A DNA stretch of 64,000 nt from the IMG/VR virus record IMGVR_UViG_3300008107_006173; one strand, 5' to 3'. Source of the stretch: a virus. Taxonomy: Duplodnaviria; Caudoviricetes. Positions 541-30,028 of this stretch are shown one piece after another. Made by a program: the position numbers and the translations under genes. The notes beneath the pieces are model-generated. The model ran no database searches. It saw only the letters and a program-made list of their open reading frames with translations, and was not told where the DNA came from. Each line of letters starts with the position of its first letter. Position 1 is the stretch's first letter.

Positions 541-588
541 TCTAAGAAGCTATTTAAAAATATAATAGAAATTAAGGTTTAAAATATT

Positions 589-2337: not shown

Positions 2338-2339
2338 AC

Positions 2340-3482: not shown

Positions 3483-3483
3483 G

Positions 3484-3513
3484 AATATAGGGCCTTTCGG
3501 CCCTATATTTTTT
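3484..3513. terminator. Bidirectional intrinsic terminator between convergent genes
   Basis: AATATAGGGCC-TTTC-GGCCCTATATT, an 11-bp perfect stem followed by a T run, between the + gene ending 3482 and the - gene ending 3541. Confidence 0.85.
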
Positions 3514-3540
3514 CTGCTCTCTTACATAACCATTTAGTGC

Positions 3541-3801
3541 TTACGCACGCTTGATCATATTTTCCATTTCAGCAAATTCGTTTGGCAGGATGTTGTTGTT
3601 GTAACGGAAGTTGCCTGTTAGATTGATTGTATCAAACAACACATACTTCTTAGTTACAGAATCATACAGTCCCATGCTAACGAACTTTCTGCTCTGATCA
3701 AACATACGCAAGAATCGATCAGTACGGTGTTCCTTATTGTACTTCTCGGCGCTAGCGCAGATTTCATCAAACTTCTTTGAAAGTTTATTACGCATTTTCA
3801 T
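3541..3801 (-). CDS. Hypothetical protein, 86 aa; the only convincing minus-strand gene
   Basis: Fills the gap between + genes, has a GAGAG upstream of the ATG, its own sigma70-type promoter and a downstream terminator. Confidence 0.8.
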   Translation of the reverse strand: MKMRNKLSKKFDEICASAEKYNKEHRTDRFLRMFDQSRKFVSMGLYDSVTKKYVLFDTINLTGNFRYNNNILPNEFAEMENMIKRA

Positions 3802-3876
3802 GCTCTCAACTTAGGGTTAAACCAATAGTGATCTATTTCTAAATCACCGCCCATGTAGCTATTCACTACAAGTCTT

Positions 3877-3905
3877 AATATACATGTTTTTAAATTTTTT
3901 GTCAA
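3877..3905 (-). promoter_or_regulatory. Sigma70-type promoter for the minus-strand gene
   Basis: The minus strand reads TTGACA-N17-TATATT (3905-3900, spacer 3899-3883, 3882-3877). Confidence 0.85.
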
Positions 3906-3944
3906 GCGAAAAATGGCCTAATTAAAATATCTGTTAAAGAATAT

Positions 3945-3952
3945 GATAAATA
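3945..3952 (+). promoter_or_regulatory. T4-late-like promoter GATAAATA
   Basis: A variant of TATAAATA 5 nt before the ATG at 3958. The same core recurs before other genes. Confidence 0.6.
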
Positions 3953-3957
3953 ATTGT

Positions 3958-4332
3958 ATGGCAAAATTCAAAGGTCTCAGTACAGTTGACAAGGTTAGAG
4001 CACCATACACTCTAGTCGATAGTGCGCTTGTAAAGCGAGATTTATTGAATACCTTTTATACAAAGAAGGGCGAAAGACTAATGCGTCCTAACTATGGTAG
4101 TATCATTTGGGACTTGCTAATGAACCCCGAGGATAGTTATACCAACAGTGAAATTATTGATGATGTAAAAAAGATAATTGACGCTGATCCCCGAGTAGAA
4201 TATATTGATGCAACAATTTATACACTAGAACAAAGTATCAGAATTGAAGTAGTTTTAAAAATTCTTCCATTTAATAATCCTGATACATTGTATCTAGAGT
4301 ACACAAGAAAGATCATTGAGGGCGCAGACTAA
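3958..4332 (+). CDS. gp25: Baseplate wedge subunit gp25-like
   Basis: LVKRDLLNTFYTKKGERLMRPNYGSIIWDLLMNP...DPRV is the GPW/gp25 pattern. Start moved from 3943 to 3958 because the late promoter overlaps the first ATG. Confidence 0.9.
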   Translation: MAKFKGLSTVDKVRAPYTLVDSALVKRDLLNTFYTKKGERLMRPNYGSIIWDLLMNPEDSYTNSEIIDDVKKIIDADPRVEYIDATIYTLEQSIRIEVVLKILPFNNPDTLYLEYTRKIIEGAD

Positions 4333-8531: not shown

Positions 8532-8544
8532 GGGTATAAGAGTA

Positions 8545-11500: not shown

Positions 11501-13323
11501 TAAAGAAAGAAATCAGTAATTATTACAATTCTTTCTCAGTTGAAAACTTCTCTAACGAATATGTCCTAGAGCGTGTTCTTCGAAATTTGATTTCTTATAG
11601 AACAGGTACAAATGTCTTTAACAGAACTTATGTTGTTCCGTTTGGCGACAACTACTCTGAAGAAGTGTTTGTTATTAACGATGTAACAAGAACAGAATTT
11701 GTATCAGACGTTGAAACAGATTTAGACAAAATTGAAAATAGTTTGCTTGTTTATAAAAAATCAAGCAGCGACACTGAGTTATTAACTGTTGACAAAGAGT
11801 ATACTATAACTGGATACAGTCCTATTACAGTTGAAGTAACTAATGAAGTTACTTTCTTACTAGGCGATCAAATTATATTTAAGATCTACAATGAAAACAG
11901 AGATAGCGCACAATGTCCACCAACACCTAGTGTTACAGGATTATATCCATTAACAAGACCTGAAATCATATATGATAACACATATGAAACACCAATCCAG
12001 GTAGTCTTAGGTCACGACGGATCACGCACACCTGTATTTGGCGACCGCCGTGATGAAATATTACTTGAGTTCGAAAAGCGTGTATACAACGCTGCTAAAG
12101 CTGAATTCCGAGAAGCTAACAGTTTACCAGAACTAAACTTTACATCTGTAAAGAAAGGCGCATTCCGCGAAACAGGATTTGCTAACCGTGAGTGGTTTGA
12201 TTTACTAAGATTTAGTTTTGCTAACTGGGTTTCACAATATAATTTAGACTTCGTTAAAAATGAATACTTTGACGAAAATGACAGTCTTTCTTGGAACTAC
12301 AGAGGTAGTTTAGATATTCCAGGTCACTGGCGTGGCTGGATGGAATATTACTATGACACTTATGAACCACATCGCCATCCGTGGGAAATGCTAGGTTTCT
12401 TCGAGCAACCAACATGGTGGGAAGTTGAATACGGTACAGATTATAGCAGCATGAATATGCAGCTCTGGGATGACCTAGAGTATGGTATTATCCGTCAAGG
12501 ACCAAGAGAAAATGTCACCGACGACAAATATCTAGTTAATAATCCTTTCAGTAGACCGGGTCTACACATGATTCTTCCTGTTGATGAAAACGGAGACTTA
12601 AGAAGTCCGTTTGATATTATTTCAACTGGCACAACTCTTAAGACGCAAGAATGGACAAATTCTAGAAGCACTTCTGCTATCACAAGTTTAGGTTCTAGTG
12701 CATATAAAGCCAATAGCTTCTTGACTGTAAATGGCTTAAATGTAAGCCATGATACTAACAATGTTTATGTTCAAGGCCGCGCCATAATTAATCATGAGAT
12801 TACAAATAGAGTAAACGCAGTTGGTCATAGCGAAGTTATGGAACAGGATATATCATTTGTATATCCAAGAACTTCAGCTGGTGCAGCATCAAACATGCCA
12901 GCAAAGGCTGTTGCAGTTCTAGTAAACGGATTGCCATTACACAATCCAACTGATGTTAATACTTGGAATAACGAAGGCGTTTGGCATTACAATAAAGGCA
13001 AGTCTGAAGCACATAGCGATTTAACCTACGGTCATGCTGGAGATGATGGTGTACTTCACTATTATTATGTAGATCCAGTAATTTTAGGCCTTGAAGAATG
13101 GGATACAGCTAATCACTCACCAATTGTTGGCTGGGCATTTGATGGCTTGCCAATTTATGGTCCTTATGGTTATAAGGATCCATTAGATCCAACTAGTGAA
13201 ATAGTAAACATTAAGAGTCCATTTAGGCTACGTCAAGGTACTCGCATTGGTGATCTAGCAGGCGCCCATAGCGGCATGTTTGTTGAGGACTATGATCTAA
13301 ATGCTGCTGTAATCCCCAGTTGA
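8545..13323 (+). CDS. Large virion structural protein (N-terminal part) ending in an apparently truncated YHYH-like domain
   Basis: 1,592-aa ORF in the late block. The C-terminus has HSPIVGWAFDGLPIYGPYGY...FVEDY, typical of YHYH-family domains, and stops abruptly. Confidence 0.75.
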   Translation: MSENKIYKKLPGVLQTTAIKNFFESTVEQLFSKANSEIINGFVGERSPENHKSGAAFLQEETATRQFYSLSPVVNTINVATGDSENLIFFDELLDTLKTYGVDTKNQNKIFGENYYSYLPPINTDKILNYQEYFWSPEGPPSIRIQGTLANPIDIEQDIIGAVSYTPASGVALKNGMIVRFVGDYVIPRAYLNTDYIIEGVGEKIRIVEKDDSFESFASTSYTALPDPADQYDSSTYSLSDSNVVFSAASISNVIVVNAGIGYVNPTVSFIGANDSPAAATVTLDSNGSVTLFTITNGGVEYSGPVGVILNDISVTANVTVGGFASYGLNPIVSKEFTLSTNTNIKVGQVVTGFVSGIVDTISSAFDSNANTWVHTLTLEDAQTFSYAEANTNPTLSFTGRDFLGEVRRNLMHTITSSNVNILDSQVVTGINPRTGEYYFRGGQYSFDKNLDPNDGGDEDPLTGDLAWGGSKSEIAPDYILIARGAKNKNVWSRTNFWFHKDNFIDAGVEVPENTWRAKRPIVEFQHNIELYNHGVQHIGAATIAATEYKKDQQYTDGGNIEVGGGVVGMMSGSTIDDVPVENATLIFPNEELNIAKYVYLSYTDTETGSPPFRIKVRRLGHPTLNPPTLLDGDVGFVPWEVEVGDVIQITSGRFNIGSEYYWTEEGWKLAQQKISSNQGPLFNLYDDQGNYLGDEGIYPASSFAGNEIFSYKVSTTVNAPDDSILGFPLSYRSFKASSEIEFENDIINQTVNYTPIGTVDAQSIGGYYFYKNVDTGLLETHWKPSTENNKQRIITTYTIDQYDVDEQQTVFYIGAIPNEKITANSGYDIIVTVNGAKREDFTYSEDPLKVGFIRFDNFNFSLNDFIEISVLSDTGLISLERISKFELPIAWRQDPSNVVDVISISEPEFLPHFKNYMESQEGFQGNPLGSNNFSNTPKDSKHAKNIVYTDHNLVLGAFLLDDQPHNLVNSLRFNSAEYEKYKNRLKKEISNYYNSFSVENFSNEYVLERVLRNLISYRTGTNVFNRTYVVPFGDNYSEEVFVINDVTRTEFVSDVETDLDKIENSLLVYKKSSSDTELLTVDKEYTITGYSPITVEVTNEVTFLLGDQIIFKIYNENRDSAQCPPTPSVTGLYPLTRPEIIYDNTYETPIQVVLGHDGSRTPVFGDRRDEILLEFEKRVYNAAKAEFREANSLPELNFTSVKKGAFRETGFANREWFDLLRFSFANWVSQYNLDFVKNEYFDENDSLSWNYRGSLDIPGHWRGWMEYYYDTYEPHRHPWEMLGFFEQPTWWEVEYGTDYSSMNMQLWDDLEYGIIRQGPRENVTDDKYLVNNPFSRPGLHMILPVDENGDLRSPFDIISTGTTLKTQEWTNSRSTSAITSLGSSAYKANSFLTVNGLNVSHDTNNVYVQGRAIINHEITNRVNAVGHSEVMEQDISFVYPRTSAGAASNMPAKAVAVLVNGLPLHNPTDVNTWNNEGVWHYNKGKSEAHSDLTYGHAGDDGVLHYYYVDPVILGLEEWDTANHSPIVGWAFDGLPIYGPYGYKDPLDPTSEIVNIKSPFRLRQGTRIGDLAGAHSGMFVEDYDLNAAVIPS

Positions 13324-13393
13324 GTATGCTTGGAAGAGCTCACCGGTATATCCATTTGCTGTAGCTGAAGCACTATTACTAGCTAAACCTGGA

Positions 13394-16300
13394 TTGTTTG
13401 CTGCTGAATTTTCAGACCCAACAAATATTCTAAGACCTACAGCAAATCCACTGTTGTTGTTAAACAAGGTCTCACGCAAGCGTTGGGATTTTGCTAGCGA
13501 AGCTGATTTTAGAATTCATGGAACATTTGATGCTGATGATAACTTTATAACAAATATTGGTTACACTCAGTTTATTAATTCCTGGATTAACTTCCAGGGA
13601 TTAGATCAAACAGATGATTTCGCTAAGAAGCTACGGTCTCTAAATGTTAAACTTGGTCATAGAATGGCCGGCTTCATTGATGAAGACACAACCGTTGTAA
13701 GAACTGACCAGTATAGTACCACAGGTAAAGCTACAAGTCTAATTGTTCCTAAAGAAAATATTACTGTTCAAGTTCATAATTCACCGTATAAGACACGCAA
13801 CTTCTACAGCGGTGTAATCATTGAAAAGACTTTAACTGGCTATAAAGTAAGAGGCTTTGATAAGAACTACGGATATTTTGATACTTTTGAAACTGATAAA
13901 ACAAAGGGAAGAGAAAGAATTCAAGTAGGCGGTAAGCCTGCAGATTTTGTTGCTTGGGATCCAGGTGTACCTTATAAGAAGGACACAATCGTACAGTGGC
14001 AGAACGGCTTCTATAGAGCACCTAAATTTATTAATGCTACCACAACATTTGACGCTAGACAGTGGAAGAGACTTCCTTCACTACCGCAAACAGGCGGTGC
14101 TAGTGCTACACTTTATCAAGTACCAACAGAAAATATTGTCCGCGTAGATTACGAAACAGAATTTACAAGCGTAGATGATCTTTACGATTTCTTGATTGGC
14201 CTAGGATATTATCACCAGTCACAGGGTTATGATCTAAACGATTTTGATGAATCAATCAATGAGGTTCGCAACTGGTCTTACGCTGCAAAACAGTTCTTGT
14301 TCTGGACTACAGGACGTTGGGAAGTTGGCAATACATTAGAACTTAGCCCACTCGCAAGAAAGATCGCGTTTGAAGCACCGCGTGGATTTATTTCTAAGAT
14401 TAACAGAACTGATAGAGAGCAATTTACAATTCTAGACCAGGATGGTATTGCTATTACTCCAACAGAATGTGAAATTCTGCGTGAAGATAACAGAATTGAA
14501 ATAACACCTCCCGAAGGCAAGCAGATCTATGGCCTTGTATTGTTTACTAAAGAAATTGAACATGCTATTACTGTTGACAACACAACTATCTTTAACGATG
14601 TTATCTTTGATACTAGATTTAATCAGCGTCATACACGTCTAAAGATTAAGGCAACAAGAACCAAGGGCTGGAAGGGTCGCTTATTAACAGAAGGTTTCAT
14701 TGTTAACGGCAGCGAACTATTACCTAACTTAGACAACATGGCAGAGAGTTTAGGCCGATACCACGAACTAGGCTTTATTCCTGTTGAAAAGGCTATCTAC
14801 AAAGCTGCTAGAGGAATGTTTGGGTTTGAAGAACGCGATTATCTTAAGGATCTAGATATTTCCGAAGACGATCAGTTTGAATTTTACCGCGGTATGATTC
14901 AAAACAAAGGTACATCAGAAAGCCTAAGAAAAATTGCAGCAAGTAACATTGTCGTACAGGGCAATGTTGCAGTATATGACGAGTGGGCATTAAGAGTAGC
15001 TGACTTTGGTGATACAGACAATAATCAAAGCGTTGAACTAAAACTTGAAAAAAGTGAGATTGTTAACGATCCACAATTAATTACACTGGCTTTCCCAGAG
15101 GATATTACTGGTATTGTTGAAAAGATTGATGTTATTAAGAGACGATACAAGTATTATGGTGCACCAGAAATTGTTATTAGTGCGCCAACAACAGGTACTA
15201 CTCGAATACAAGCTATTGCTACTGCTACATTAAATGCAAGTAGAGAACTTGATTCTATTACAGTTATAGATCAGGGTGCTGGATATGCTATACCAGTAGG
15301 CGTAACAATCATTGCAGGTAATGTTGTCACCGATACAGTTGATACAACTTTCCAGCGTGTAACAGCCATCAGCACAGGAGATTGGATTGCTACAACAGGT
15401 GCTGAACTATCAGGTAATGTTATAATTACTGATCACTTTGGCAATAGCAATGTAAGCGTTAACTTATCAAATGTAACTAGTGCGGCTGATATTGTCACTG
15501 CTATTAATAGCAGCCCCGGCCTAGGCGGAAATATTACTGCTGCTGCGTTTAGAAGTGAAGTTGAAGAAATATTTAATGCAAATGCATTAACGGCCGGTGT
15601 AACTTATCAAATAGTCAGCGTTGGAAGCACTAACTTTATGTTAATTGGTGCTGCTAACAATAATGTTGGTACAGCATTTGTAGCATCGGGTCCTGGCACA
15701 GGAACTGGTACAGCAAACGCAGTTGTAGCAAATTATACCTTAACTATTACAGGTAACGATTTCAGCATCGTGAGTGCTGCTGCAAATCTACATCTAACAC
15801 CTGGCAGATATCAACCAGCGCAACGATATTCAGTAGTTGGTGCAAATACCACAGTTGCTGGTAATATTACAGTAACCGTTGACGGTGTTGAAGTAAATCA
15901 ATTTGTTAATGGTGCAAACTCATCAGGCGGATATAACTGGACATTTGACGAGGGCGACAGATGGCGCCATGAACTACAAGGCCAGTTAGGCCCAAGCGGA
16001 TCATTTACCTATACATTAGGTACCGGTACTGAGCATAGTAGCTCAAACATTGCAGCTGAAAATAATTATGTAGTTGACGGTGAATACAATCACCTAAAAC
16101 TTTATATCAATGGTTTCCATACCGGTTATACCGATGTTGAAGTTCCAAATCAATTATTGTTAGAAAATTCAGCAGTCGCAGGCAGCACAGAATATCAAAA
16201 TGTTTGGGAAGTAAATGGGTCAGGCAACGAGATCACACTTTATATTGATCGACTACCAAACTCAGTAAAATACTTCTCCGCTACTTCAAACAACAGTTGG

Positions 16301-19300
16301 ATATTACCTGCTACTAACCCAAACAAAGTATCAGATCCAAAAACACTTATTAAAGTAGTCGAAGATGGTACCATACAGTTTACAAATGACTATCGAGGTG
16401 ATCTGCCAAACAGCGTGTTAAACATTGTTGTTAAGGTACAGGACGGCATCGCAATCAAACTTGGTGCCGGAAGATCATATGAAATTACACCTGAGATAGC
16501 CGGCGACGATATTATCCTGTTTGATATTGACGACGCCGACAGATTCTTAAAGAAACCCTCTGGTGTTCGTGAGTACAACCTATGGCCAACTACAAAACAA
16601 ATAAACTTCACAGGTATTTGGGATAATGCATTCCTAAGAATACCAAATGCTGGATATGTAAATCCTGCTAATGTAAACTTCATGTCTTATAGTATAGCTG
16701 ACCTTCCAGATCTATTCAGCGATAATATTATTGTCAAACCAGCCGGTGGACATTTAATTCATGTTGCTGTTTCTGAAAATAAAGATTGGAATGTTTATAA
16801 GTTAGCGCCTATTGACTCAAGAATTTCATTCCTACATCAGGCTCAAGGTTCAGATAGTGCTAAACTTGTTACAAATAACAGTTTGTTTAACTATCTAGAC
16901 TCAAACATGATCGGCGAGGCTGATACCGCTAGATATCTAGACTACTTCCTAACTCTTAAGAATGCTGATGTTAGCGACAATGTAGTAGTTTGGACTAACG
17001 AAAGAATTATTCAGCAGCGACAGGCTGATATTACAAATCCAAAAGCCCCAAGAATGATCGAAGCTCGCATTAAGAGCATTGGTCCTGCTCCTGGTAGTAA
17101 TATTGCTATTGCTGATTATAAACCAATTACAACTAAAATTTATGCTGATGTGCAAGTAAGCAACTCAGCCGCAGCTAATACACTGGTATTAAATTTTAGA
17201 AATGTACACAATATCAAAGAAAACGATGCTATTACACTAGCAGCAACATCTGGTGTACAATATTACTCAAATGCTACTGTTGTACTAAACAGCGCAGGTA
17301 ATGTTACATTTACTAGCGTAAGTTCACTACCAAGCGAGTTTACTGCGCCTGCTTATGTAACTCTCTACACTGAAGATGCAAATATTTACAATAAATCTGT
17401 TTATGTTCAGAGTGTTAATGTTGCTGCCGGTACATTCACTGTAACAAACAGCTATTTTGCTGATTCAAATGTGCTGGTTGGACTAGGTAATATTGATTAT
17501 CTATTAAATGTTACACCTAATTATGACGCTGGTAATACAGATGTATACTATCTAGCATCAAATGTAACCAGTAGAAAACTTGAAATATCAGGTCCTGAAC
17601 TAGCTAATATTGTTTCAGGTGTTCAATATAATGCTGTTGCAAGTAATGTATTCTTTAACGGAAACGGCAATATCTCAATTGAAACATTCGACTTTATTCC
17701 TACTAACTTTAAGGTTCCTGGAAACATTACACTTTATGCATCAGGTGATTCCACTGCTAACGGTAATGTGTATTATGTTGAAAGTATTGATCGCAGAGGC
17801 GGATTTATTCAGGAAGAAGATATGGCTTTCCCTGTAGCTACTTCTCTAGTAGTTAAGGATCCGTATTTCTCTAACGCTAACATAATCTATAATGCTAATG
17901 CTAATGTGACCTTTAATAGTTATGGTAATATTACAATTAATAGTGCCGGTGCTATTCCTGCTAACTTTGCAGTACCCGGTTATGTTAAACTGAGAATTGG
18001 TCCGGGAGGACTAACTAGCTCAAACAATCGTCCTGTATATGTTACAGCCGCAAACCTAACAACAAATACTTTTACAGTAATCAATGACGGATTATTTACA
18101 ACTGCTAATGCAACAGCAAATCTAAATGTTGTTGGATACAGTTTAGAACTACCATCAAATACAGTAAGTGGCTTAGGTAATGTTTCCTTTACTCTAACTG
18201 TTCCATCAACTGTTGAAGTTCAACATATGGATCGCACTAAGATTATTACTGATGATGCTCATAGTGTCGAGATTGGTCAAGTAGTAAGAATCTTCTCAAA
18301 TGCATTTACTGGAACATATACTGTTCGTAGTACACCGGATGATCGTTCAATTGAAATTGATGCTCCGTTTACTTACAACGATGACAGAACAGGGTGGTTG
18401 ATCAAGAAGGGTCTTCAGATTAAGACCACTGATCCTCACGGTATTAGTCCCGAATATGCAAGAAATAGAAAGAGAATTGCAATTCACTTTGCTGATCCTA
18501 GATTATACAATGACATCTATTTCATTGATGAAATCACACCAGATAGCATTATCGTAAAAGATAGAATGCCCCTAGAAGGCATCGCGTCTGTATACTTAGA
18601 TCGTGTTCAGGCTTATGTTAGAAATGCCAACCTTTCAACAAGAACTGTACAGATTACAAATAATGGTTTGCTGTCAGAAACTACAATTATCTACACAGCA
18701 AACAGTCAGTTAGTACCTGCTAATGCATATTCTATTAACTCAACAAACATTGTGTTTGATGCAAATATCTTAGATGCTAATTCTAGTGTATCAACCGGCT
18801 TTACAATCTTTAGAGAAATGGATGTTGCAGAGGATCGCTATCCAATTCTAACAACACTAGATCATGGTGTTGTTAAACTAAACGGTATTGACCTATCTAT
18901 TACTAGCTATAACAACCTACAAGGTACGGTTGATGCTATTAATAGAGAAATGAATCTACGTCGAGCTGCTATCAGCTCTAGAGGCAACACAATGTCAGTA
19001 TCATTTAATATGCTTTCTGACATTCATACAGAATTACCAGTACCAGCCGGCACTAAGAACTTTGTTCCTTCTAGACAAGTTAATAATTCAACTGTTGGTA
19101 ATTTACCTATCAATTCTGTAGCAAATGGCTCTCAGCTAGGGACTAATACCACAGCGGCGTCATTTGCTCCAGCATACCAAATTGGTAATTACGGTCCATA
19201 TGTTAGAGACGAAAATACAATTATAGCATTAAGCAATAGAGACGTTATTACTGGTAACTTGATTCTAAGCTCAGGTAACGAAACCTCAATTGACCCAACA

Positions 19301-22300
19301 TTTAATAAAGGACCAATTAGAGTAGGTCCGCTACGCGGAATTACCTACACTGATTTAATGACAGGTCAGCGATACCTATGGAACTTTGAGATCGGTAAGT
19401 ATGTTAGAATTCAGCAGCCACGAGCATATACTGCTGATCCTGCAGACGAATTCTCAATTGGTTTAGATACATTAAGATCAGAAATTGCTTATAATCCTGA
19501 TCCAGCATTTTCAGATGGTACAGATACCGGTGCAGGTGTGAATCCTGAACACGAACGGGATTTAATTGCAGATCCTACCGAAGAAGATCAGGATACAACA
19601 GAGTTACCACAACAACCACCTAATCATGTTGATACTGCACCAGTCTTAACAGTACTAGCAGGCAACGGACCAACATCATATATTGACCCTACTGCAATGG
19701 GCAAAAAGCGTCCTATCTATGATCTAAGTGCTACCCGCGGCGGCAATGTAAGTACATCACCAAACGGTGCTGATACTGCATTTAGTGTGTTTGCAAATCC
19801 GCGCTGGGCTCTTAAGGCTGTGTCGACTTCAGCTGGTTGGTTAATTGAAGTTTATGAAAATGTTAAGAACAATAAAACACCATTTGCAAACTACTACTGG
19901 ATACTAGTTGATAAAGTTTGGCCACCATCATTCCCACATGACTTCTGGGGCACAATTAACGCAAATAGTGAGTTTGGTGAAGAACCTATAGAAACATCTT
20001 ATTATTATACAGATACTGAGTTTACTGGTAATATTGATCTACAAACTGATAGCGTATCAGCTAACGAAGCATATTACATTGATATTCCGCCAGTTGAGCC
20101 TGCATTCTACATTGGTAAGCAATTGATTCCAGAACCATTTGCTGTGTCTGGCGGTAACAACGCTAATGCAGCAGTGACTTGGGCAAAACTACCGCCAAGT
20201 GTTATTGGCGCCTCTGCACCAAATCTAAAAGATACAAAGATCACTGTTAATGCAACTGGCTACAATTCATTCCTAATGTGGGCACCAGGTTTAACTCCTG
20301 GTAAATGGGATCCACAAGTTGAAGGTCCTGGTCACTTAAACGGTTTTGCTGGATATCCAACATTTTGGGGTTACGGTGTAGGTTACTACGATAATACTGG
20401 CGGCGGACAAAGCCCAACATCATTTATCAGTGGCGGCACTGATCCTTATCCAGGCGCAGCAACCGAAGGCTGGTCAACAAGACAGCCACGATTCAAGTAT
20501 AGCAAAAACTTTACAGTATTCCCACTAAAGAATAACGATGTAAACGAACTAGCTAATTCTGTAATATTAGACGGTCAAACTAATCACGACAATCCAGCTA
20601 ATACACTGGTACGAGCTGATGATATTTTTGTCGCATGTTTCTGGACCGAAGCTCACACTTATAAGAAACAGTTAGTTGGATATAACTATAAGAATTTTGA
20701 TGCTGAAGGCAATCCTGCTCCAATTTATAAGGATTACAACGGTACAGTAACACGAGTCAAATATATTAGAATAAGTGAATTGCCCGCTAATGCAGTTCTA
20801 CGCCGTCCAATTCCTGACACAGGTTGGGGCGGCAAAGGCTGGAAGAATCTTGTTACCGATACAGTTAAACTACCTGGAGAATATAACCCAGTACCAGGTG
20901 ATGCAAATAATCCATGGTCTACATTTGATTTAACTTCTCTACCAAGTGGGTCAACTGGTGAAGATGCTGATGATACAACTCCAGCACCAATTGGTGATCC
21001 GCAAGTAATTGCACAAGGTGATCAAACAGCACCACTAAGTGGCGGCAGAGGATTAGGTAGAGCTAACAATGATTTATCGCTAGCGGTTCCTGTATCGCCA
21101 ACTGGGCCGTTCTTACACGGTGGTGCATTAGAAGCGTTACCGGGCCCATGTCAATTGAGCCCGGTTGTTATACCTCCTTCAACAGATCTACCCTGTTACA
21201 ACAGACCATCTCAAATTTATACCACATTAAAAACAGAACTTGACGGCAACGCATTAACTAAAACTGGAATTGTTGCTGCTGCTAATATTTCAAGCAATAG
21301 TGCAACTATTTCTAAGGGTTTAATTATTGATTCAGTTAGAATAGCTAGTACTAATGCGCTAGTACTTGCTAATGCATACACATACGCTCCAGCTAACGGA
21401 ATTCTAACATTTAGTAACTCTGTTCTAAGTGCTAATGCAAATGTTAATACAGATTTCTTAGTTAACGGCAGTATTCATGAAGAACACACAGTTATTGTTG
21501 TTGGTAATAATCCATTCTATGTATTCTTTGATTTTAGTAGTCCTGACATTGTTGCTAACGGTGTTACTATTGAACAATCAGATGACATTAGTTTTGGTAA
21601 GAGCAATGTTACAACTGCTGATATCAAACTGGTTACCACAACAATGCAAACTCCGATCAGTGAAGGCGGCGTTTCTAGAGTTAATGATGGTCAACAAATT
21701 GGCGTATATGGTGTAACAAATATACCACGCTTCTCAACAAACTTGTTACCGGAAGTTAATTCAGCATTTGGTATCGATAATCCAGTAGCTATCGGTGAAA
21801 CTAAGAGATTGAAGCTAGAAAGATTAGAAGCTATTGATCGTTACGGTCAATATAACGGTGTTAAGAATATTGGTTTCATAGCTAGGACTATCGACTGCCG
21901 CAATGGTCAATATGTTCGTGTTAGTGTAAACAAGGGCGCTGGCAATAAGACAGGTAAGTATAAACTACTCTTAATTTATACTGGCGTAGAAGAGGATCCA
22001 ATGGATCCAAACAATGGCTTCCTAGCAACTTGCCCTGATAGAGCAGCACCTTCCCGTGTATATCGCGCTGGCGCTAGAATTGAACAGTTTACCTACTCAG
22101 ATGCTAAAAGAAAGAAACGAGTAAGTAGCACAACCGGTGCTGCTGTAGGTGCTGTTGGTGGTGTAGCAGCAGCAGCAGCCGGTGTAACAGCCGGTGCCGC
22201 AGCAGTTGGTGCTTCTGTTGTTGGTGCAACAATTGCAGCAGCTATTCCAGTGATTGGTATTGGTTTAGCAGTAGGTGCGCTACTCAGCGGCTTATTTGGT

Positions 22301-25300
22301 AAGAAGAAGAAAGGTTTAGGCGACGGCTACTTTGGCGGTAAAAATCCTGCAGATGACAACATTTATTATCCATATGGCACCGGCAGCAATTCAACAACAC
22401 ATAAAACAGTTAGTGGTGTAAACGCTAACGGTAAACTAAGTGGTAAGAGCGTTGGTATTCCTATTGTTGACGTACCAACAGTCCCTACTTATTCAACTTA
22501 CGAATTTAAGGGTTACTATCGCGCACCAGTTGACGGCACTTATACCTTTAGCACTACATCAGACGATGCGTCATATGTTTGGATATCACCAAACGATGAT
22601 AAATCAGATGACGAGTACTATAAGGATAACGGATATCAACCAGGTAATCCAAAGAATTATACTCAGCAAAATGCTATTGTTGCTAACGGTGGTCTACATG
22701 GCGCAGTAACAAAATCCGGCACTATACAATTGAAGGCCGGCAACTATTACTTTGTTCGTGGTATCTTTGGTAATAACAAGGGACCTGGTAGCTTTATCTT
22801 TAGAGTTAAGCCACCCAACTCACCAGAAGAACCAGTCAGGTTTACTGGTAGAAAGTGTCCTAGTGATGATGGATATGTAGATCCGGCTACTTTAGCTGCT
22901 AATGATACAGCATTATATAATGTTGCGCCGGGGTCAAATACAGGCGGCGTTAGCAGCAACGATGGTCCTCTGCCTGATGATTTGCAGCGGGCAGTTAATG
23001 AAGCTATTGGCGTCCTTAACTTCTCTGGTTATTCACAGCCAGAAATGACTGGCACTACTTATATGCCAGCTAGCTTTAAGATTAGAAACACTAAGAAAGT
23101 TATAGACCCTCAAAGCTATGGATATTCTGTTGCACTCGACGGTAATAGATTCGTAAATGCTACTAGTCAGCGAGTTACGGGCGGATTTGTTATTCCTTTA
23201 GCTAAAAAGCTAACCGTTGTTTCAAGAACACCTCGTCCACTAGAGTCATCACAGGTTTCTTCGCAGCCATGGTTTAAGACATCGCAGTTAAATCTAGACA
23301 ATACATTTAGAGCTGTTAATTATAGTCCAAAGCGAATTGGCAGTACCTTTATGCTTGACACTATGGCAGTTCCGATTACCAATGTGGTTAACGGCATGGT
23401 TGTTACAAATAATAACAATGCTGGCGGCATTACATTATCACCTACCGGGCCGACCGTTCCGGGTACAGGTGTTTCCGAAAAACAAGTAATCGCAGAAACC
23501 AACGGCGGACTAACAGCCGCCACAAATAATACAATTATTGAAACTCCGCTAGCGGAAGCACCATTTGAAAATAGACAAGATAAAATTAAGTATACAGCTT
23601 TCCCAACTATTAACATTACCCCGCTCGTATATGATGCAAATGGTGCCCTTGTTCCAGCTGGTGCTCCTGCTATTGCTAGAATGGTAAAACCAACACCTAC
23701 CGCAAGTGTATCGGCACAGAATCTTGCAAACATACCACAAGGTTCTGAGCTTGTAATCAATGGCCGTACAATAATACCTGGTACAACAGCAGAAACATTT
23801 AAGGCACAAATTAACTGTGCTGACATTGGTATTCGCGCAGATATTAATAAAGCTACAGGTAACCTTGTACTAAGATCATGCTCAGATAATCCTTTCAATG
23901 TACAGAATGGTTGCGGACCAGGTAAACTAAAACAGGTAGCTGACTTCCATATCAGCAGAGGTTTTGATCAAAGCAGATCCGTAACTGCCGGCGAGAGCTA
24001 TACAGATAGAGCTCTAAATGTGTATGGTGTTGGCGACGAAGAAGGACTACCCATAGATACTGAATGGACTCAATTTGACAGTGACGATGAACTAGAATCA
24101 GTATTGAATCTAGGTAATTCAATTATTGGTGCTAGAACAACTACTGCTACAACCACAACAAACTTCTCTACTGGTGGTAGTGGATATAGTGTAGGCGACA
24201 GACTGAGACTAATTGGCGGTACACCTGTAAACAATACTCAAGGTCCACTAACATTAATGTGTATCGATGATCCAGGCTATGGATACACCGATGTAGGTAA
24301 TCTTCGCGTAGTAATCGGCGGCAATGACGCCCCTGGTTTTGGTGCTGAAGCTATTGTTACAGAGCTAGACGAATCAGGCGGTATCAAATTTATTGAAATG
24401 GTAAACTGGGGTATCGGTTACGATTCTCAAACACCACCAGATGTAAAGATTGTTGATATTGGTGAAAGATTTAATGGCCAGTACACTACAATTAATGCTC
24501 AGGATTTGGCATCAGTAGCTGGCTCTGTTTATAGCAGAGGCACTATCTTACTAGTTCAGGACACAACACAGCAAAACAATACGACTACTGTTAGAGAAAA
24601 GTTTTATAGAGTTGCTGCTGCAAACATTACAGTTTCTGCAACCACTTACAATGCTTCAGCTAATGCTACATTCTTAAGCAACAGTAATATTTCAATTAGC
24701 GGTAATGTTGCGACAGTAAAAGCCAATACTTGGGTAACATTGTTGTTTGCAGCATCAAATGAATATGCAAATGCAGCTAATAACTTTAACTTCTATGTAA
24801 GCAATGTAAATGTATCTAACACATTTACAGGCGCAGGTTCATTTACAGTTTCCGATAGATTCTTTGCTAATACAACTGTAGTAAATGCTCTAAACACAGG
24901 TGCTATTCAGTATACTGTAGTCGAACCATTAAACTACAGAGGACTAGTTGAAATTTGCGATCCTCGTTTAGGACGATCAAGCCCAATGGTTCATGCACGA
25001 ATTGGTATCGATCCAGCAACAGCCGAAGCAGGTGATGCAGGTGATGGCACAACAGATACAACATCACGCACTAAGGTACAGATGCTTGACAACTTTAGAT
25101 CACTAAACGGTCCATTGCGTATTGCTAAATTTATTGTTACTGGTACAGATGCTGAGGGTTCAATTACTGCTCTAAGAGTTATTGACAGAGGATTATATAA
25201 GGTATTCCCATCCGATCTAACAATGGGTATCCCACTAGAGTATGATTATGAACCAATTGGCCAAAACTCGTTCCCAGAACAAGCATTGGGCTTAGTTGAT

Positions 25301-28300
25301 CCTCTAAGAAATAATATTCTATACGGCGGTAGCCACCCTGAATATCAACAACCACCGTTTGTCAACACAGACGGGTCAAACATTAATCAAAATAACAAGC
25401 ATCCTGATTGGGCAGATCTAGACGAATATCGTCGAGTACTTGATCCAACAGCATTTAAAGGTTATAGACTTGTAAACGGTCAGCGTGTTAACGACCCTCT
25501 AGCATTTAATGACGGTGGTATCGGATACCGTTATGAATTGTTTAACGGCACACCTGGTGCATACGATCCGCTAACTTTTGTTTACATTGGCGGTCAATTT
25601 ATCAGCAAGCAACAGATTATCAATACTGATCCTGCTGATATTGATTTTGGCAACTACTTTGAGCCACGAGCAATTGCTGGCGGTTCAGGTGCAAGACTGT
25701 TCTTAACAGCAATGGAAGTTCCGGATTGCTCAGAAAAGGGCACAGCGAAGGAAGCATTAGGTTTACCAGATACGGTAGCAGATGTTAGTGCGCCAGAAGT
25801 TGTTGCTTTACAAATGAACAACGCACTTGCTGATGCAGGCTATCGACCTAGAGATATTTCAGTAGATGTTGTACCAGTTGGTGTTGGCATTGATCAAGTT
25901 GATATTAAAACACCTGGCTTCCCTGGAGTTCGAATCACTGGCACACCCGGCTTCCCAGAGAAATTAGGTATACCTGTTGGTGACTATTTCAACGGTATGC
26001 TATGTATCGAAGCTACATTAAGCACACCAAATCTAACAGGTCAGCAGGCTACTGCACAAATTGAAGAACTATATAAGAATAGTGCATTTGGGCTCTTAAC
26101 ACCAGAACAGGATGCAGCAAATTATGGCCCTGAAGGTTATAATACTGTTGAACCACCACAGGTACTATCACTGTTGTGCGTTAACAGTATCCAAACTGAT
26201 CCAAATAGCTGGTTTGGCAATCTAAACAAGGGTTCTGCACAGAATCCAACTGATTTTAGACTAAAACCACCTGTTGAAGGGCTAGACACTGGCCTAGGCC
26301 TACCAGGCGATTTAGAGTTCATCAATGAATTGTATGAATATGATATTCAAACTATCTTTGGTGAAAATGTAAACTTAATCGGTAACACTAATAGACAAAC
26401 AACCAATGTGTTTGTGTTTGAAAGCAAGCGTTTCCTCAATGTTGATCTTGTTGAAGAAGTCGATGCTACAGATACTTCAAATATTAGTTTAGCTACAGAA
26501 CCTAAAGTTTGGATCGACAGTTACTTTAACACTGATCCTGCAAATGTATCCATGACAGGGTTCACAGACGGTGGTTGGGCATATCTAGAATACGGTGTCC
26601 CTAAGCGTTGGCAGACACCGCTAACCAATCCTAACTATGTGAAGAATGTAATTCTTTATAATCAGGATGATGGTGCTAAGATTACAGACTTTGAATTTTG
26701 GGATCCGTTTAAGGGTATTATTCCAGGATTTATTCGCAACGAAATACATTTCGTTGGAACTAGCGATCCAGTAAACTATAATAATGCTCGCACTAACTTT
26801 GGCCAAAACAATATTGGTAAGGTATGGTGGGATACCAGCACACTTCGCTACATGTGGTACGAACAGGGCAGCGATATTGAGCGTTGGAAGAACTGGGGCA
26901 GAACCTTCCCGGGAAGTACAATTACAGTATGCGAATGGGTAGAAAGCCGCGCACTACCACAAAACTGGACAGGTGACGGTACCCCTCGTTGGCTAGATAG
27001 ATATGTAACTGAAAGAAGATACGATGAAGTAAATGAGAAGTATGAAAACTTCTACTATTACTGGGTACAAAATCGTGCTAAACTAGATCCTAGATTAGTA
27101 GAGCAACTGGGTAGAAAACATGACACTGAAACATTAGCTAAGTTTATCGCTAACCCAAGTGGTTACGGTCTAAACTTAGTTAGCTTTGTTAGTGAAAACT
27201 CATTTGTTCTAAACAACATTGGGCAGATACTACCTGAGGATAGCGGTGTAATTCAAATCAATCTAAGCCGTAATTTAAATGCAGATGGCATTAAGCATAC
27301 TGCATGGAAACTAATGCGCGAAGGCGACAACAACAGCATAGTACCAGAACACTTATCTGAGAAACTAATTGACAGCCTATGCGGTGAAAACGCTGTTGGC
27401 GAATTTGTTCCAGATAGACGACTAAGCAATGTAGAGCGTTATGGCATCAGTTTCCGTCCACGTCAAACTATGTTTGATGACATGTGGGAAGCAAGACGAG
27501 TAATGACATATGTGCTAAATGAAATTCTAGCAGATATTAAGCTAAACTCAATCTATCCAAACTGGGATGCTAATTTAGAACCTAGCAATGTATTTGAATC
27601 CGCCACTTGGTACGAAGTAAGATACATTGATCAGTCAACTAACACTAAAGTAAGATACGATAGCAGTTATAAGCCAATTTACAATGTTTCCAGCATCAGT
27701 GAACTTGAATCTAATCTAAATGTTCCTGACGGTACTGTATTGCAGGTCAAAGGATCAACCGGAGACCGGGCACAGCTTTGGATGTTTGATTATGAATCGC
27801 AGTCATACAAATTGATTGCTATTGAAAATGAAACTATTAAGATTAAAAATTCAGTATACAATTCATCGTCATTCCCAGAAACAGAGCCGGCAGATTTAAG
27901 AAGCCTGCTAGAAGCTCTGAGAGATAATGTATTCAATAATACTCAGTATTGGAATGTGTTGTTCTTTGCTCTAATGAAACATGCTTATATGGAGCAAGGT
28001 GAACTATCATGGGCATTTAAGACTTCATATGTTTATGTAGAAAAGGATGAAGAAGATCTAATTGAGTTCGTTGGCTTCAAGCCAGAGAACTTTGAAAAGG
28101 TTATCGAATACATGAACGAAGCCAAGCCGTTCACTGCTAAGATTCGTGAGTACAAGGACGGCAAGCGAGCACCAACAGAAGTTATTGGTGTTGGTATGAT
28201 CAGTGACTTTGATAAGCCACCATATCCAGATCCATTGACAGGCAATATTAGAATACTCGATGACTTCGTGTTAGATGATGCTAATATTTTAGCCAACGAC

Positions 28301-30028
28301 GATAGATACATCAATTACAACAGTATTCTAGACAAGAACGCTGCACCATTTAGACGCAGTACAACAACAATTGTATTTGATAGAACTAACTGGGAAATGA
28401 CCCAAACTGGATTCAATGCAAATACAACAACAATAAATCGCAGCATCGCTAGAAACATAGCGAACCTATCAATGCAGTCAAATGCAGAAGTTTCAGCTAA
28501 TGCTAATACTAGAGCTGTTGATCGTATCTTCAAGTTTGATTCAGAAGTGCAATCAATGTTCGTTGAAGAAGTCATTGCACACGATCCTGCAAATAACATT
28601 GCTAATTTCAACAATGTTGTAATAGATGCTAACTACCTAACAGATGTTATCAATCTTGGTAACTTGTCATTGACATTAGCACTAGTTAAGGATAAAGTTG
28701 GTGGTAACTTCAGAGGCGATGTTCTAGATGCAAATGTCTTTACTAATGCTGTATTTGGACTAGATACAACAACAGATTACTTGGATGTATTTGCCTGGGA
28801 TACTGCTGCATGGGACAGCTTTGAATGGGATGAAAGAATTGATGTAATTAACTATCAAGGCATCTTCAGTGAGAGTGTTCAGGGCAATATAACTTTCCGT
28901 AGAAACAACACTACCTATGAAGGCTTCGATGGCGTAACATTCAAGCGTGTTCTCTACGGTGAAGAGCGTCCAGAAGAAATGGTAATGTTAAGCCCGCTGG
29001 AATCAATGATCATGCGTGTTACAACAAATATCTATCCAAGCGGTAATAATTTAACTATCTCAAATGTAACAACAACATTAGTATCTTTTGATGCTGCTGG
29101 TTCCCCATATGATTCTGCAAGTTTAGCAAACTATGATTATAGCGGAAATATTACGCTGTTATCTAATGGTATTGTATCAGTAGGGTCGAGCAATGTATTC
29201 TATGTAAATGCAACAATGAGTAATGCTACTGTTACATTCCCTGCAGATAGGGATACTACATTCCCTGCACTGGTGCAATTGTATGCAAACGGTAACTTGA
29301 TTATACCTCAGGGTACATCAACAAACACTCTGTATATACCAAGTGCAAATGCAAATACATTCTTCTATGTAAGCAATGTAACAGCAAATACAATTACTGG
29401 AGCAGGTACATTTACAATTGAGGATGATTACTTTACAAGCGCAAATATTGCAGCACTAGCAAATGCCAATGTGCAGTATAGAATTGGTGTTTACACATCG
29501 ATTGATCTGTTTGATGAAGCTGTAACAAATGCAACAATAGTATCAGCTAACACAGCAAGTGCTAATGCAAGTAATGTTCAGTATCAAATACATCAAAATC
29601 TATTTGGTCAGACAGAATATTTGAGAATCCTAGAAAACAATAAGACTACACTAGCAGCTAATGTGTTCAATTACTCTACAGAAATTACAGTAGTTGACTC
29701 TAGCGGTTTCGCTGATCCAAGACCACAAGTTCCTGGTGTATTGTGGCTAGGCTCTGAAAAAGTACTATACGAAAGAAAAACTGGTAACACATTTGGTGGA
29801 TTAACCAGAGGTGTAGCAGGTACTGCTATACAAAATTGGGTAGTTATGGATGTTACTGGCGCCCCAATTGCAGTAGAAGTATTCCCCGGCGACGGCGAAG
29901 AAACATTTAATGACTTGAACCCCGAATCTAATGTTTGGTTAGATACAGGGGCAAGCAGTCTAGCAGATCTTGGTAATGCAGACGTTTCAAACGTCACAAG
30001 TATTATGAAATTCTTACACGATCTATAA
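13394..30028 (+). CDS. Giant virion/tail-associated protein (5,544 aa) with repeated beta modules, a PA14-like domain and a hydrophobic segment; probably the continuation of 8545..13323
   Basis: Uninterrupted 16.6-kb frame, open from 13313 (SPVEYAWKSSPVYPFAVAEALLLAKPG). The TTG at 13394 has no Shine-Dalgarno; the first in-frame ATG is 13664. Confidence 0.8.
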   Translation: MFAAEFSDPTNILRPTANPLLLLNKVSRKRWDFASEADFRIHGTFDADDNFITNIGYTQFINSWINFQGLDQTDDFAKKLRSLNVKLGHRMAGFIDEDTTVVRTDQYSTTGKATSLIVPKENITVQVHNSPYKTRNFYSGVIIEKTLTGYKVRGFDKNYGYFDTFETDKTKGRERIQVGGKPADFVAWDPGVPYKKDTIVQWQNGFYRAPKFINATTTFDARQWKRLPSLPQTGGASATLYQVPTENIVRVDYETEFTSVDDLYDFLIGLGYYHQSQGYDLNDFDESINEVRNWSYAAKQFLFWTTGRWEVGNTLELSPLARKIAFEAPRGFISKINRTDREQFTILDQDGIAITPTECEILREDNRIEITPPEGKQIYGLVLFTKEIEHAITVDNTTIFNDVIFDTRFNQRHTRLKIKATRTKGWKGRLLTEGFIVNGSELLPNLDNMAESLGRYHELGFIPVEKAIYKAARGMFGFEERDYLKDLDISEDDQFEFYRGMIQNKGTSESLRKIAASNIVVQGNVAVYDEWALRVADFGDTDNNQSVELKLEKSEIVNDPQLITLAFPEDITGIVEKIDVIKRRYKYYGAPEIVISAPTTGTTRIQAIATATLNASRELDSITVIDQGAGYAIPVGVTIIAGNVVTDTVDTTFQRVTAISTGDWIATTGAELSGNVIITDHFGNSNVSVNLSNVTSAADIVTAINSSPGLGGNITAAAFRSEVEEIFNANALTAGVTYQIVSVGSTNFMLIGAANNNVGTAFVASGPGTGTGTANAVVANYTLTITGNDFSIVSAAANLHLTPGRYQPAQRYSVVGANTTVAGNITVTVDGVEVNQFVNGANSSGGYNWTFDEGDRWRHELQGQLGPSGSFTYTLGTGTEHSSSNIAAENNYVVDGEYNHLKLYINGFHTGYTDVEVPNQLLLENSAVAGSTEYQNVWEVNGSGNEITLYIDRLPNSVKYFSATSNNSWILPATNPNKVSDPKTLIKVVEDGTIQFTNDYRGDLPNSVLNIVVKVQDGIAIKLGAGRSYEITPEIAGDDIILFDIDDADRFLKKPSGVREYNLWPTTKQINFTGIWDNAFLRIPNAGYVNPANVNFMSYSIADLPDLFSDNIIVKPAGGHLIHVAVSENKDWNVYKLAPIDSRISFLHQAQGSDSAKLVTNNSLFNYLDSNMIGEADTARYLDYFLTLKNADVSDNVVVWTNERIIQQRQADITNPKAPRMIEARIKSIGPAPGSNIAIADYKPITTKIYADVQVSNSAAANTLVLNFRNVHNIKENDAITLAATSGVQYYSNATVVLNSAGNVTFTSVSSLPSEFTAPAYVTLYTEDANIYNKSVYVQSVNVAAGTFTVTNSYFADSNVLVGLGNIDYLLNVTPNYDAGNTDVYYLASNVTSRKLEISGPELANIVSGVQYNAVASNVFFNGNGNISIETFDFIPTNFKVPGNITLYASGDSTANGNVYYVESIDRRGGFIQEEDMAFPVATSLVVKDPYFSNANIIYNANANVTFNSYGNITINSAGAIPANFAVPGYVKLRIGPGGLTSSNNRPVYVTAANLTTNTFTVINDGLFTTANATANLNVVGYSLELPSNTVSGLGNVSFTLTVPSTVEVQHMDRTKIITDDAHSVEIGQVVRIFSNAFTGTYTVRSTPDDRSIEIDAPFTYNDDRTGWLIKKGLQIKTTDPHGISPEYARNRKRIAIHFADPRLYNDIYFIDEITPDSIIVKDRMPLEGIASVYLDRVQAYVRNANLSTRTVQITNNGLLSETTIIYTANSQLVPANAYSINSTNIVFDANILDANSSVSTGFTIFREMDVAEDRYPILTTLDHGVVKLNGIDLSITSYNNLQGTVDAINREMNLRRAAISSRGNTMSVSFNMLSDIHTELPVPAGTKNFVPSRQVNNSTVGNLPINSVANGSQLGTNTTAASFAPAYQIGNYGPYVRDENTIIALSNRDVITGNLILSSGNETSIDPTFNKGPIRVGPLRGITYTDLMTGQRYLWNFEIGKYVRIQQPRAYTADPADEFSIGLDTLRSEIAYNPDPAFSDGTDTGAGVNPEHERDLIADPTEEDQDTTELPQQPPNHVDTAPVLTVLAGNGPTSYIDPTAMGKKRPIYDLSATRGGNVSTSPNGADTAFSVFANPRWALKAVSTSAGWLIEVYENVKNNKTPFANYYWILVDKVWPPSFPHDFWGTINANSEFGEEPIETSYYYTDTEFTGNIDLQTDSVSANEAYYIDIPPVEPAFYIGKQLIPEPFAVSGGNNANAAVTWAKLPPSVIGASAPNLKDTKITVNATGYNSFLMWAPGLTPGKWDPQVEGPGHLNGFAGYPTFWGYGVGYYDNTGGGQSPTSFISGGTDPYPGAATEGWSTRQPRFKYSKNFTVFPLKNNDVNELANSVILDGQTNHDNPANTLVRADDIFVACFWTEAHTYKKQLVGYNYKNFDAEGNPAPIYKDYNGTVTRVKYIRISELPANAVLRRPIPDTGWGGKGWKNLVTDTVKLPGEYNPVPGDANNPWSTFDLTSLPSGSTGEDADDTTPAPIGDPQVIAQGDQTAPLSGGRGLGRANNDLSLAVPVSPTGPFLHGGALEALPGPCQLSPVVIPPSTDLPCYNRPSQIYTTLKTELDGNALTKTGIVAAANISSNSATISKGLIIDSVRIASTNALVLANAYTYAPANGILTFSNSVLSANANVNTDFLVNGSIHEEHTVIVVGNNPFYVFFDFSSPDIVANGVTIEQSDDISFGKSNVTTADIKLVTTTMQTPISEGGVSRVNDGQQIGVYGVTNIPRFSTNLLPEVNSAFGIDNPVAIGETKRLKLERLEAIDRYGQYNGVKNIGFIARTIDCRNGQYVRVSVNKGAGNKTGKYKLLLIYTGVEEDPMDPNNGFLATCPDRAAPSRVYRAGARIEQFTYSDAKRKKRVSSTTGAAVGAVGGVAAAAAGVTAGAAAVGASVVGATIAAAIPVIGIGLAVGALLSGLFGKKKKGLGDGYFGGKNPADDNIYYPYGTGSNSTTHKTVSGVNANGKLSGKSVGIPIVDVPTVPTYSTYEFKGYYRAPVDGTYTFSTTSDDASYVWISPNDDKSDDEYYKDNGYQPGNPKNYTQQNAIVANGGLHGAVTKSGTIQLKAGNYYFVRGIFGNNKGPGSFIFRVKPPNSPEEPVRFTGRKCPSDDGYVDPATLAANDTALYNVAPGSNTGGVSSNDGPLPDDLQRAVNEAIGVLNFSGYSQPEMTGTTYMPASFKIRNTKKVIDPQSYGYSVALDGNRFVNATSQRVTGGFVIPLAKKLTVVSRTPRPLESSQVSSQPWFKTSQLNLDNTFRAVNYSPKRIGSTFMLDTMAVPITNVVNGMVVTNNNNAGGITLSPTGPTVPGTGVSEKQVIAETNGGLTAATNNTIIETPLAEAPFENRQDKIKYTAFPTINITPLVYDANGALVPAGAPAIARMVKPTPTASVSAQNLANIPQGSELVINGRTIIPGTTAETFKAQINCADIGIRADINKATGNLVLRSCSDNPFNVQNGCGPGKLKQVADFHISRGFDQSRSVTAGESYTDRALNVYGVGDEEGLPIDTEWTQFDSDDELESVLNLGNSIIGARTTTATTTTNFSTGGSGYSVGDRLRLIGGTPVNNTQGPLTLMCIDDPGYGYTDVGNLRVVIGGNDAPGFGAEAIVTELDESGGIKFIEMVNWGIGYDSQTPPDVKIVDIGERFNGQYTTINAQDLASVAGSVYSRGTILLVQDTTQQNNTTTVREKFYRVAAANITVSATTYNASANATFLSNSNISISGNVATVKANTWVTLLFAASNEYANAANNFNFYVSNVNVSNTFTGAGSFTVSDRFFANTTVVNALNTGAIQYTVVEPLNYRGLVEICDPRLGRSSPMVHARIGIDPATAEAGDAGDGTTDTTSRTKVQMLDNFRSLNGPLRIAKFIVTGTDAEGSITALRVIDRGLYKVFPSDLTMGIPLEYDYEPIGQNSFPEQALGLVDPLRNNILYGGSHPEYQQPPFVNTDGSNINQNNKHPDWADLDEYRRVLDPTAFKGYRLVNGQRVNDPLAFNDGGIGYRYELFNGTPGAYDPLTFVYIGGQFISKQQIINTDPADIDFGNYFEPRAIAGGSGARLFLTAMEVPDCSEKGTAKEALGLPDTVADVSAPEVVALQMNNALADAGYRPRDISVDVVPVGVGIDQVDIKTPGFPGVRITGTPGFPEKLGIPVGDYFNGMLCIEATLSTPNLTGQQATAQIEELYKNSAFGLLTPEQDAANYGPEGYNTVEPPQVLSLLCVNSIQTDPNSWFGNLNKGSAQNPTDFRLKPPVEGLDTGLGLPGDLEFINELYEYDIQTIFGENVNLIGNTNRQTTNVFVFESKRFLNVDLVEEVDATDTSNISLATEPKVWIDSYFNTDPANVSMTGFTDGGWAYLEYGVPKRWQTPLTNPNYVKNVILYNQDDGAKITDFEFWDPFKGIIPGFIRNEIHFVGTSDPVNYNNARTNFGQNNIGKVWWDTSTLRYMWYEQGSDIERWKNWGRTFPGSTITVCEWVESRALPQNWTGDGTPRWLDRYVTERRYDEVNEKYENFYYYWVQNRAKLDPRLVEQLGRKHDTETLAKFIANPSGYGLNLVSFVSENSFVLNNIGQILPEDSGVIQINLSRNLNADGIKHTAWKLMREGDNNSIVPEHLSEKLIDSLCGENAVGEFVPDRRLSNVERYGISFRPRQTMFDDMWEARRVMTYVLNEILADIKLNSIYPNWDANLEPSNVFESATWYEVRYIDQSTNTKVRYDSSYKPIYNVSSISELESNLNVPDGTVLQVKGSTGDRAQLWMFDYESQSYKLIAIENETIKIKNSVYNSSSFPETEPADLRSLLEALRDNVFNNTQYWNVLFFALMKHAYMEQGELSWAFKTSYVYVEKDEEDLIEFVGFKPENFEKVIEYMNEAKPFTAKIREYKDGKRAPTEVIGVGMISDFDKPPYPDPLTGNIRILDDFVLDDANILANDDRYINYNSILDKNAAPFRRSTTTIVFDRTNWEMTQTGFNANTTTINRSIARNIANLSMQSNAEVSANANTRAVDRIFKFDSEVQSMFVEEVIAHDPANNIANFNNVVIDANYLTDVINLGNLSLTLALVKDKVGGNFRGDVLDANVFTNAVFGLDTTTDYLDVFAWDTAAWDSFEWDERIDVINYQGIFSESVQGNITFRRNNTTYEGFDGVTFKRVLYGEERPEEMVMLSPLESMIMRVTTNIYPSGNNLTISNVTTTLVSFDAAGSPYDSASLANYDYSGNITLLSNGIVSVGSSNVFYVNATMSNATVTFPADRDTTFPALVQLYANGNLIIPQGTSTNTLYIPSANANTFFYVSNVTANTITGAGTFTIEDDYFTSANIAALANANVQYRIGVYTSIDLFDEAVTNATIVSANTASANASNVQYQIHQNLFGQTEYLRILENNKTTLAANVFNYSTEITVVDSSGFADPRPQVPGVLWLGSEKVLYERKTGNTFGGLTRGVAGTAIQNWVVMDVTGAPIAVEVFPGDGEETFNDLNPESNVWLDTGASSLADLGNADVSNVTSIMKFLHDL
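22495..22815 (+). other. PA14-like carbohydrate-binding domain within the giant protein
   Basis: YEFKGYYRAPVDGTYTFSTTSDDASYVWI...NGGLHGAVTKSGTIQLKAGNYYFVRGIFGNNKGPG, including the PA14 SDD motif. Confidence 0.8.

Follow-up and report, generated by a model that had tools for sequence, protein, structure and literature searches.

Sequence comparison attributes the frame break in a giant phage baseplate gene to a 329-nucleotide deletion rather than to programmed frameshifting

In E. coli, prfB carries a programmed +1 frameshift site, CUU-UGA-C, and the structural genes of Listeria phage PSA (capsid, tail) reportedly shift into the +1 frame at a CCC beside a stop. A locus that resembles these lies in a stretch of 64,000 nucleotides (nt), hereafter the window, from the IMG/VR virus record IMGVR_UViG_3300008107_006173 (Duplodnaviria; Caudoviricetes), where two very long open reading frames (ORFs) of a giant virion/baseplate gene are joined by a +1 frame change. 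The resemblance consists of a proline CCC near the stop, as in PSA, and of a +1 frame that stays open beyond it. The window differs from prfB and PSA in that its break is not conserved, its stop lies one codon away from CCC, no Shine-Dalgarno-like or structural stimulator accompanies it, and a deletion explains the shift. A first-pass annotation of the window had left a programmed +1 frameshift open and considered deletion or misassembly at least as likely. The latter part of that interpretation stands, since 329 nt are missing relative to a contig of 99.9% identity; the programmed frameshift does not, because the break occurs in no relative, the intact relative has its CCCC run in frame and no stimulator is present. 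The frame change is a lesion, not a system, and is not real as a recoding element.

Among described proteins, the gene compares with gp128 of the Pseudomonas phage PA5oct (EST35_0128, QCG76010.1) and its homologs in RaK2-like jumbo phages, including Agrobacterium phage Atu_ph07. Each is encoded by a single coding sequence (CDS), of 3,857 amino acids (aa) in PA5oct and 4,449 aa in Atu_ph07 (AUZ94962.1). The PA5oct gene directly follows one annotated 'baseplate wedge', and its record carries a flag for detection by electrospray ionization tandem mass spectrometry (ESI-MS/MS). gp128 is listed among the largest PA5oct proteins (PMC7318152). The two window ORFs are collinear with this one protein at 34-42% identity around the junction, and, like gp128, the window gene follows a baseplate wedge gene and belongs to family phrog_10938. 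The freshwater lineage differs from gp128 in an insertion of about 340 aa containing a YHYH domain, placed between ...QEW and WKFGD, and in a PA14/GLEYA domain. The gene of our contig is interrupted, whereas gp128 is not. An intact freshwater copy, a single ORF at 63399-85394 of the contig from which L004 derives (IMGVR_UViG_3300005758_000035), encodes 7,331 aa; this is roughly double the size of gp128 and very large for a phage protein.

In the window, the last codons of frame 1 (8545-13323, 1,592 aa) are ...GCT GTA ATC CCC AGT TGA, the TGA occupying 13321-13323. In the +1 frame, which a TAA closes off at 13310-13312, the open stretch starts at 13313 (TCC CCA GTT GAG, SPVE...), reads SPVEYAWKSSPVYPFAVAEALLLAKPG and is free of stops for 5,571 codons, to 30028. 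A 16.7-kb open frame at 40% GC is beyond chance. The two frames overlap by just 8 nt. The first canonical start within the +1 frame is TTG at 13394, which is preceded by ...AAACCTGGA and has no spaced Shine-Dalgarno sequence ahead of it, and the first ATG is at 13664; no usable start codon was found downstream of the junction, none of the candidates having a Shine-Dalgarno sequence. The coordinates given in the first-pass annotation all hold, as does its calculation that a +1 slip at CCC-A would give a protein of 7,160 aa.

To what the break is owed is seen in L043 (Ga0114343_1000168), a contig from another freshwater metagenome (JGI sample 3300008110), which was found by exact look-up of the neighbouring gp6-like protein. 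In blastn, window positions 1-13313 correspond to L043 5670-18982 and positions 13312-18202 to L043 19310-24200, at 99.9% identity and without gaps, and L043 holds 329 extra nt exactly at 13313. Mismatches number 14 in the 13,313 nt left of the junction and 4 in the 4,891 nt to its right; none falls within 400 nt on either side, and no other indel separates the two contigs over 18.2 kb. The giant ORF of L043 has no stop across the 3,329 codons of sequence examined. At the left end of the extra segment L043 reads GCTGTAAT followed by TGGCGC..., and at the right end ...GATCTAT followed by CCCCAGTTG (beginning CCCCAG); the window joins GCTGTAAT directly to CCCCAGTTG. The only sequence common to both endpoints is a 2-nt AT microhomology. 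Because 329 is 3 x 109 + 2, and thus not a multiple of three, everything downstream is shifted to the +1 frame, and frame 1 reaches TGA three codons on.

Two IMG/VR relatives, L003 (95.5% nt identity) and L004 (about 80%), likewise keep one frame across the junction point and show the same gap as L043 does. Window 10642-13313 aligns with L003 1-2672 and window 13316-15000 with L003 3004-4688, with no indel in either segment, and these offsets again indicate that the window lacks about 329 nt. Searches of the window by blastn and tblastn did not find the missing segment elsewhere. On these alignments, the frame change is caused by a deletion of 329 nt (110 codons), and the locus is correctly annotated as a single disrupted gene, 8545-30028, whose deletion lies at 13312/13313. 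The result is useful mainly as a guard against misannotation, in that no recoding event should be entered for the site. It also illustrates how the choice between frameshift and deletion can be settled without reads when another sample supplies a near-identical contig.

The two ORFs that flank the junction belong together as parts of a single giant virion/baseplate gene of family phrog_10938. In tblastn against phage genomes, the last conserved part of the upstream ORF and residues 1-485 of the +1 frame match the same annotated gene in PA5oct-like Pseudomonas phages and in Atu_ph07, and in E. coli phage EJP2 both match a gene carrying an identical annotation. In PA5oct the gap between the two matches is only 69 nt. 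Against the phrog_10938 profile, the upstream ORF starts at position 18 (best stretch 18-468, E = 4e-142, with later positions matched too), and the downstream frame covers positions 1066-1695 from its residue 2 (E = 5e-105) and, in its second half, 1799-2135 and later (E = 5e-72), so both ORFs are collinear along the profile; the upstream ORF is also collinear with the N-terminal third of PA5oct gp128. Synteny with a gp6-like wedge gene is preserved as well. What the window copy lacks of the family's features is an uninterrupted gene, which its relatives have. Homology of the +1 frame begins at its first codons (SPVEYAW in the window, SPVEEAW in PA5oct, APAEAAW in Atu_ph07), and the alignments with PA5oct and Atu_ph07 begin at its residue 1.

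Seven metagenomic relatives, at 26-98% aa identity, remain open in a single frame, over the 500-1,000 codons that lead up to the junction point and over all of the sequence beyond it. When protein databases were searched for close fragments spanning the junction, only relatives of at most 57% identity came up, and those that reach the junction region run continuously across it. The comparison suggested in the first-pass annotation thus gave one ORF with extra residues at the junction (329 nt, 110 codons). That annotation had also allowed for homologs consistently divided into two genes, which would refute a fusion. All homologs are one gene, so that a natural two-gene split is refuted; recoding is not rescued by this. 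Two short proteins on long contigs that resemble natural splits, P0022 (beginning MFSDGAPVENAW) and P0018, belong to assemblies that break the entire gene into many pieces, and we read them as assembly errors. In the ENA contigs L036 (536-13470; its label gives 3.87x coverage) and L037 (1-10770), the orthologous giant gene is called as many short genes and the assembly looks indel-rich, yielding homologs such as P0022 whose shortness misleads.

Lost with the 110 codons are the terminal part of the YHYH domain and WKFGD, the opening half of the conserved motif WKFGDxxPVExAW. In L003 and L004 the sequence runs from AAVI through the missing G(T/K)(Q/P)GYTD.YNTRYGYTPDSP.TPIRYYVATIDD.GEPMFPY.VGGGVKSHTGS...ETQEITGDT.AQWKFGDL(A/S) to PVEYAW. 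The piece is also present at 57% identity in L008 and L009, and its identity among relatives is 57-98%. The early end of the YHYH-like domain, pointed out previously from the window alone, is confirmed by its PF14240 match, which covers profile positions 11-153 of 193 in the window and 10-182 of 193 in L003 and L004; the window match scores 78-81 bits against a cut-off of 25, over this partial profile. The suspicion that PVExAW is the middle of a conserved region also proved right, the WKFGD half lying in the missing piece. In a wider alignment, no stretch of the region is more strongly conserved than WKFGDxxPVExAW...YPFA.AEALLL.KP, and the Phe and Asp of WKFGD are invariant across nine aligned sequences.

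On balance, we lean toward the deletion being a real, recent and probably defective allele. Such an allele, present in the sequenced DNA and very young, could have arisen by illegitimate recombination or replication slippage at the 2-nt AT microhomology. Its product would be truncated to 1,592 aa and would have its YHYH domain damaged, and the remaining 5,571 codons would be translated little or not at all. The allele would then be defective in a probably essential baseplate gene, caught before further decay, with no recoding mechanism involved. No direct repeat or shared k-mer longer than 2 nt exists at the deletion endpoints; an assembler cannot invent a junction between ends that no longer repeat joins, and reads must therefore contain it. 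Should the deletion be real, it is a snapshot, of modest interest, of a natural population of freshwater phages in which an essential giant structural gene exists as a defective allele.

Several observations weigh against a real allele. The junction 24-mer is absent from IMG/VR and JGI metagenome contigs, and a degenerate gapped pattern is absent from IMG/VR, so that this one contig is the only one to show the junction. The truncated 1,592-aa protein, looked up by exact match, occurs on one 280-kb JGI contig only; the two other members of its cluster are fragments that stop short of the junction. A variant that has suffered an out-of-frame loss in a structural gene of probably essential function should not reach the abundance needed for assembly into a 280-kb contig, a point in favour of an artefact or of the lesion being tolerated to some degree. 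The judgement between allele and artefact draws on assembled sequence.

It is thus a serious possibility, if a somewhat less probable one, that the sampled phage was intact as in L043 and that the junction stems from a chimeric or template-switched library molecule, for example through amplification, or from a consensus or assembly error. Besides the privacy of the junction to this contig, an intact genome of 99.9% identity from another sample and the expected lethality of the lesion speak for an artefact, as does a lack of relaxed constraint. Downstream of the junction, polarised nonsynonymous-to-synonymous (N:S) counts are 13:65 in the window lineage and 9:65 in the L003 lineage (Fisher p = 0.49); neither this comparison nor the 5,571 codons without a stop gives a sign of relaxed selection in the window lineage. 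These two results fit a very recent lesion and an artefact alike and cannot separate them. A weak inverted repeat near the endpoints in L003 could in addition favour polymerase jumping. It is an imperfect 18-nt repeat (L003:2678-2695 and 3029-3046, 78% complementary, possibly due to chance), with one arm 5 nt into the deletion from its left end and the other 28 nt beyond its right end, and could bring the endpoints together in replication or amplification. An artefact is harder to reconcile with a de Bruijn graph, which needs junction-containing reads where the endpoints share no more than 2 nt, and with the 400 clean nt on each side of the junction. No further gene is broken anywhere in the 64-kb window, unlike in the apparently error-ridden L036 and L037, where the giant gene is in many pieces.

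Far less probable is a lesion that is real but tolerated, with the protein made as two polypeptides (1,592 aa and a C-terminal part from TTG 13394 or by reinitiation) or joined by chance, low-level +1 slippage. The 16.7-kb frame is still open and the allele was abundant enough for assembly, as tolerance would have it, and in bacteria termination-reinitiation without a Shine-Dalgarno sequence occurs at low efficiency. A very recent lesion predicts the open frame equally, however, and no homolog is split at the junction point. TTG 13394 lies 71 nt past the stop, without a spaced Shine-Dalgarno sequence, and is an internal Leu codon in relatives; the invariant motif residues are gone regardless. 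We consider it similarly improbable, by a hair less so, that the deletion is an abundant allele of a viable phage whose protein is made as two polypeptides or through chance +1 slippage at C-CCC-A or reinitiation. If it were, a baseplate protein of about 7,300 aa would tolerate both a split and the loss of the invariant WKFGD motif.

An evolved programmed +1 ribosomal frameshift at CCC-A, joining the ORFs into one protein, is very improbable and, as judged from the aligned sequences, effectively refuted. The site has some of the right attributes: tRNA-Pro is able to re-pair from CCC to CCA, the frames overlap by so little and the homology of the second frame begins at its first codon. However, the frame break occurs in no relative (the seven metagenomic relatives, L043, PA5oct or Atu_ph07), and the 329-nt loss accounts for it fully. 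The four Cs of L043 are read in frame, CTA TCC CCA GTT, as Leu-Ser-Pro-Val, which rules out the run both as a slippery signal and as a homopolymer error. Bases at the slip site vary synonymously among relatives (TCC CCA in L043, GCT CCG in L003, TCA CCT in L004). A sense codon, AGT, stands between CCC and TGA, so the stop does not directly follow the slippery codon. The upstream sequence, AATGCTGCTGTAAT, has no Shine-Dalgarno-like run, and the 121 nt spanning the site (13300-13420) fold at -22.2 kcal/mol (z = +1.42), with 186 of 200 shuffles folding at least as well. Even a trans-frame product would still be without 110 conserved residues, some of them invariant. Reading TGA 13321 as sense, through stop-codon reassignment, was considered and does not help, as a further TGA and a TAA follow in frame 1 within about 65 nt. 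A one-base homopolymer error (CCCC for CCC) atop an in-frame 330-nt deletion, which would with one C fewer give an in-frame junction ...AAVI-PVEYAW... and a loss of exactly 110 codons, has a negligible chance of being right and is refuted by the same in-frame CCCC of L043, where four Cs are the true sequence, the 329-nt loss alone explaining the shift with no further indels in 18.2 kb.

Table 1. Position of the deletion junction and of the genes and domains around it in the window
Feature	Position	Strand	Basis or remark
gp6-like baseplate wedge gene, 1,399 aa	4332..8531	+	phrog_10646 'baseplate wedge subunit' E=0, also phrog_219
Giant virion/baseplate gene, N-terminal part, 1,592 codons	8545..13323	+	premature TGA made by the frame change
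YHYH domain (PF14240), C-terminal end cut off by the deletion	12874..13305	+	Pfam match
Deletion junction; AT dinucleotide common to both former flanks	13312..13313	.	blastn against L043
CCC-A, proposed +1 slip site; plain coding sequence	13315..13318	+	in-frame Ser-Pro in L043
Rest of giant gene, 5,571 codons, +1 frame, without its own start codon; PA14/GLEYA domain	13313..30028	+	

The genomic setting of the gene recalls further described proteins (Table 1). Its place directly after a gp6-like gene is reminiscent of T4 gp7, a comparison of gene order and annotations only. Cyanophage proteins annotated as 'gp7', baseplate wedge, virion structural or 'YHYH domain-containing' have the YHYH domain in common with the window gene, and the similarity observed is confined to that domain. 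On other contigs, PF27647 is called for a protein identical to the gp6-like protein. The PA14/GLEYA domain, of a carbohydrate-binding type, lies inside the giant protein at about 22480-22840 of the window (residues ~3057-3175 of the 13313-30028 frame), with Pfam E-values of 2e-11 and 4e-9.

Strains 99.7-99.9% identical to the window are present in several independent metagenomes (L043, L030, L033 and L028, from JGI samples 3300008110, 3300008448 and 3300008111 and from ENA ERZ27248034), and the phage is thus widespread. Past the junction, a three-way protein alignment of window 13313-17800 with L003:3001-7488 and L004:3001-7488 contains 92 gapped columns, which indicates that the giant gene varies between strains by in-frame indels as well.

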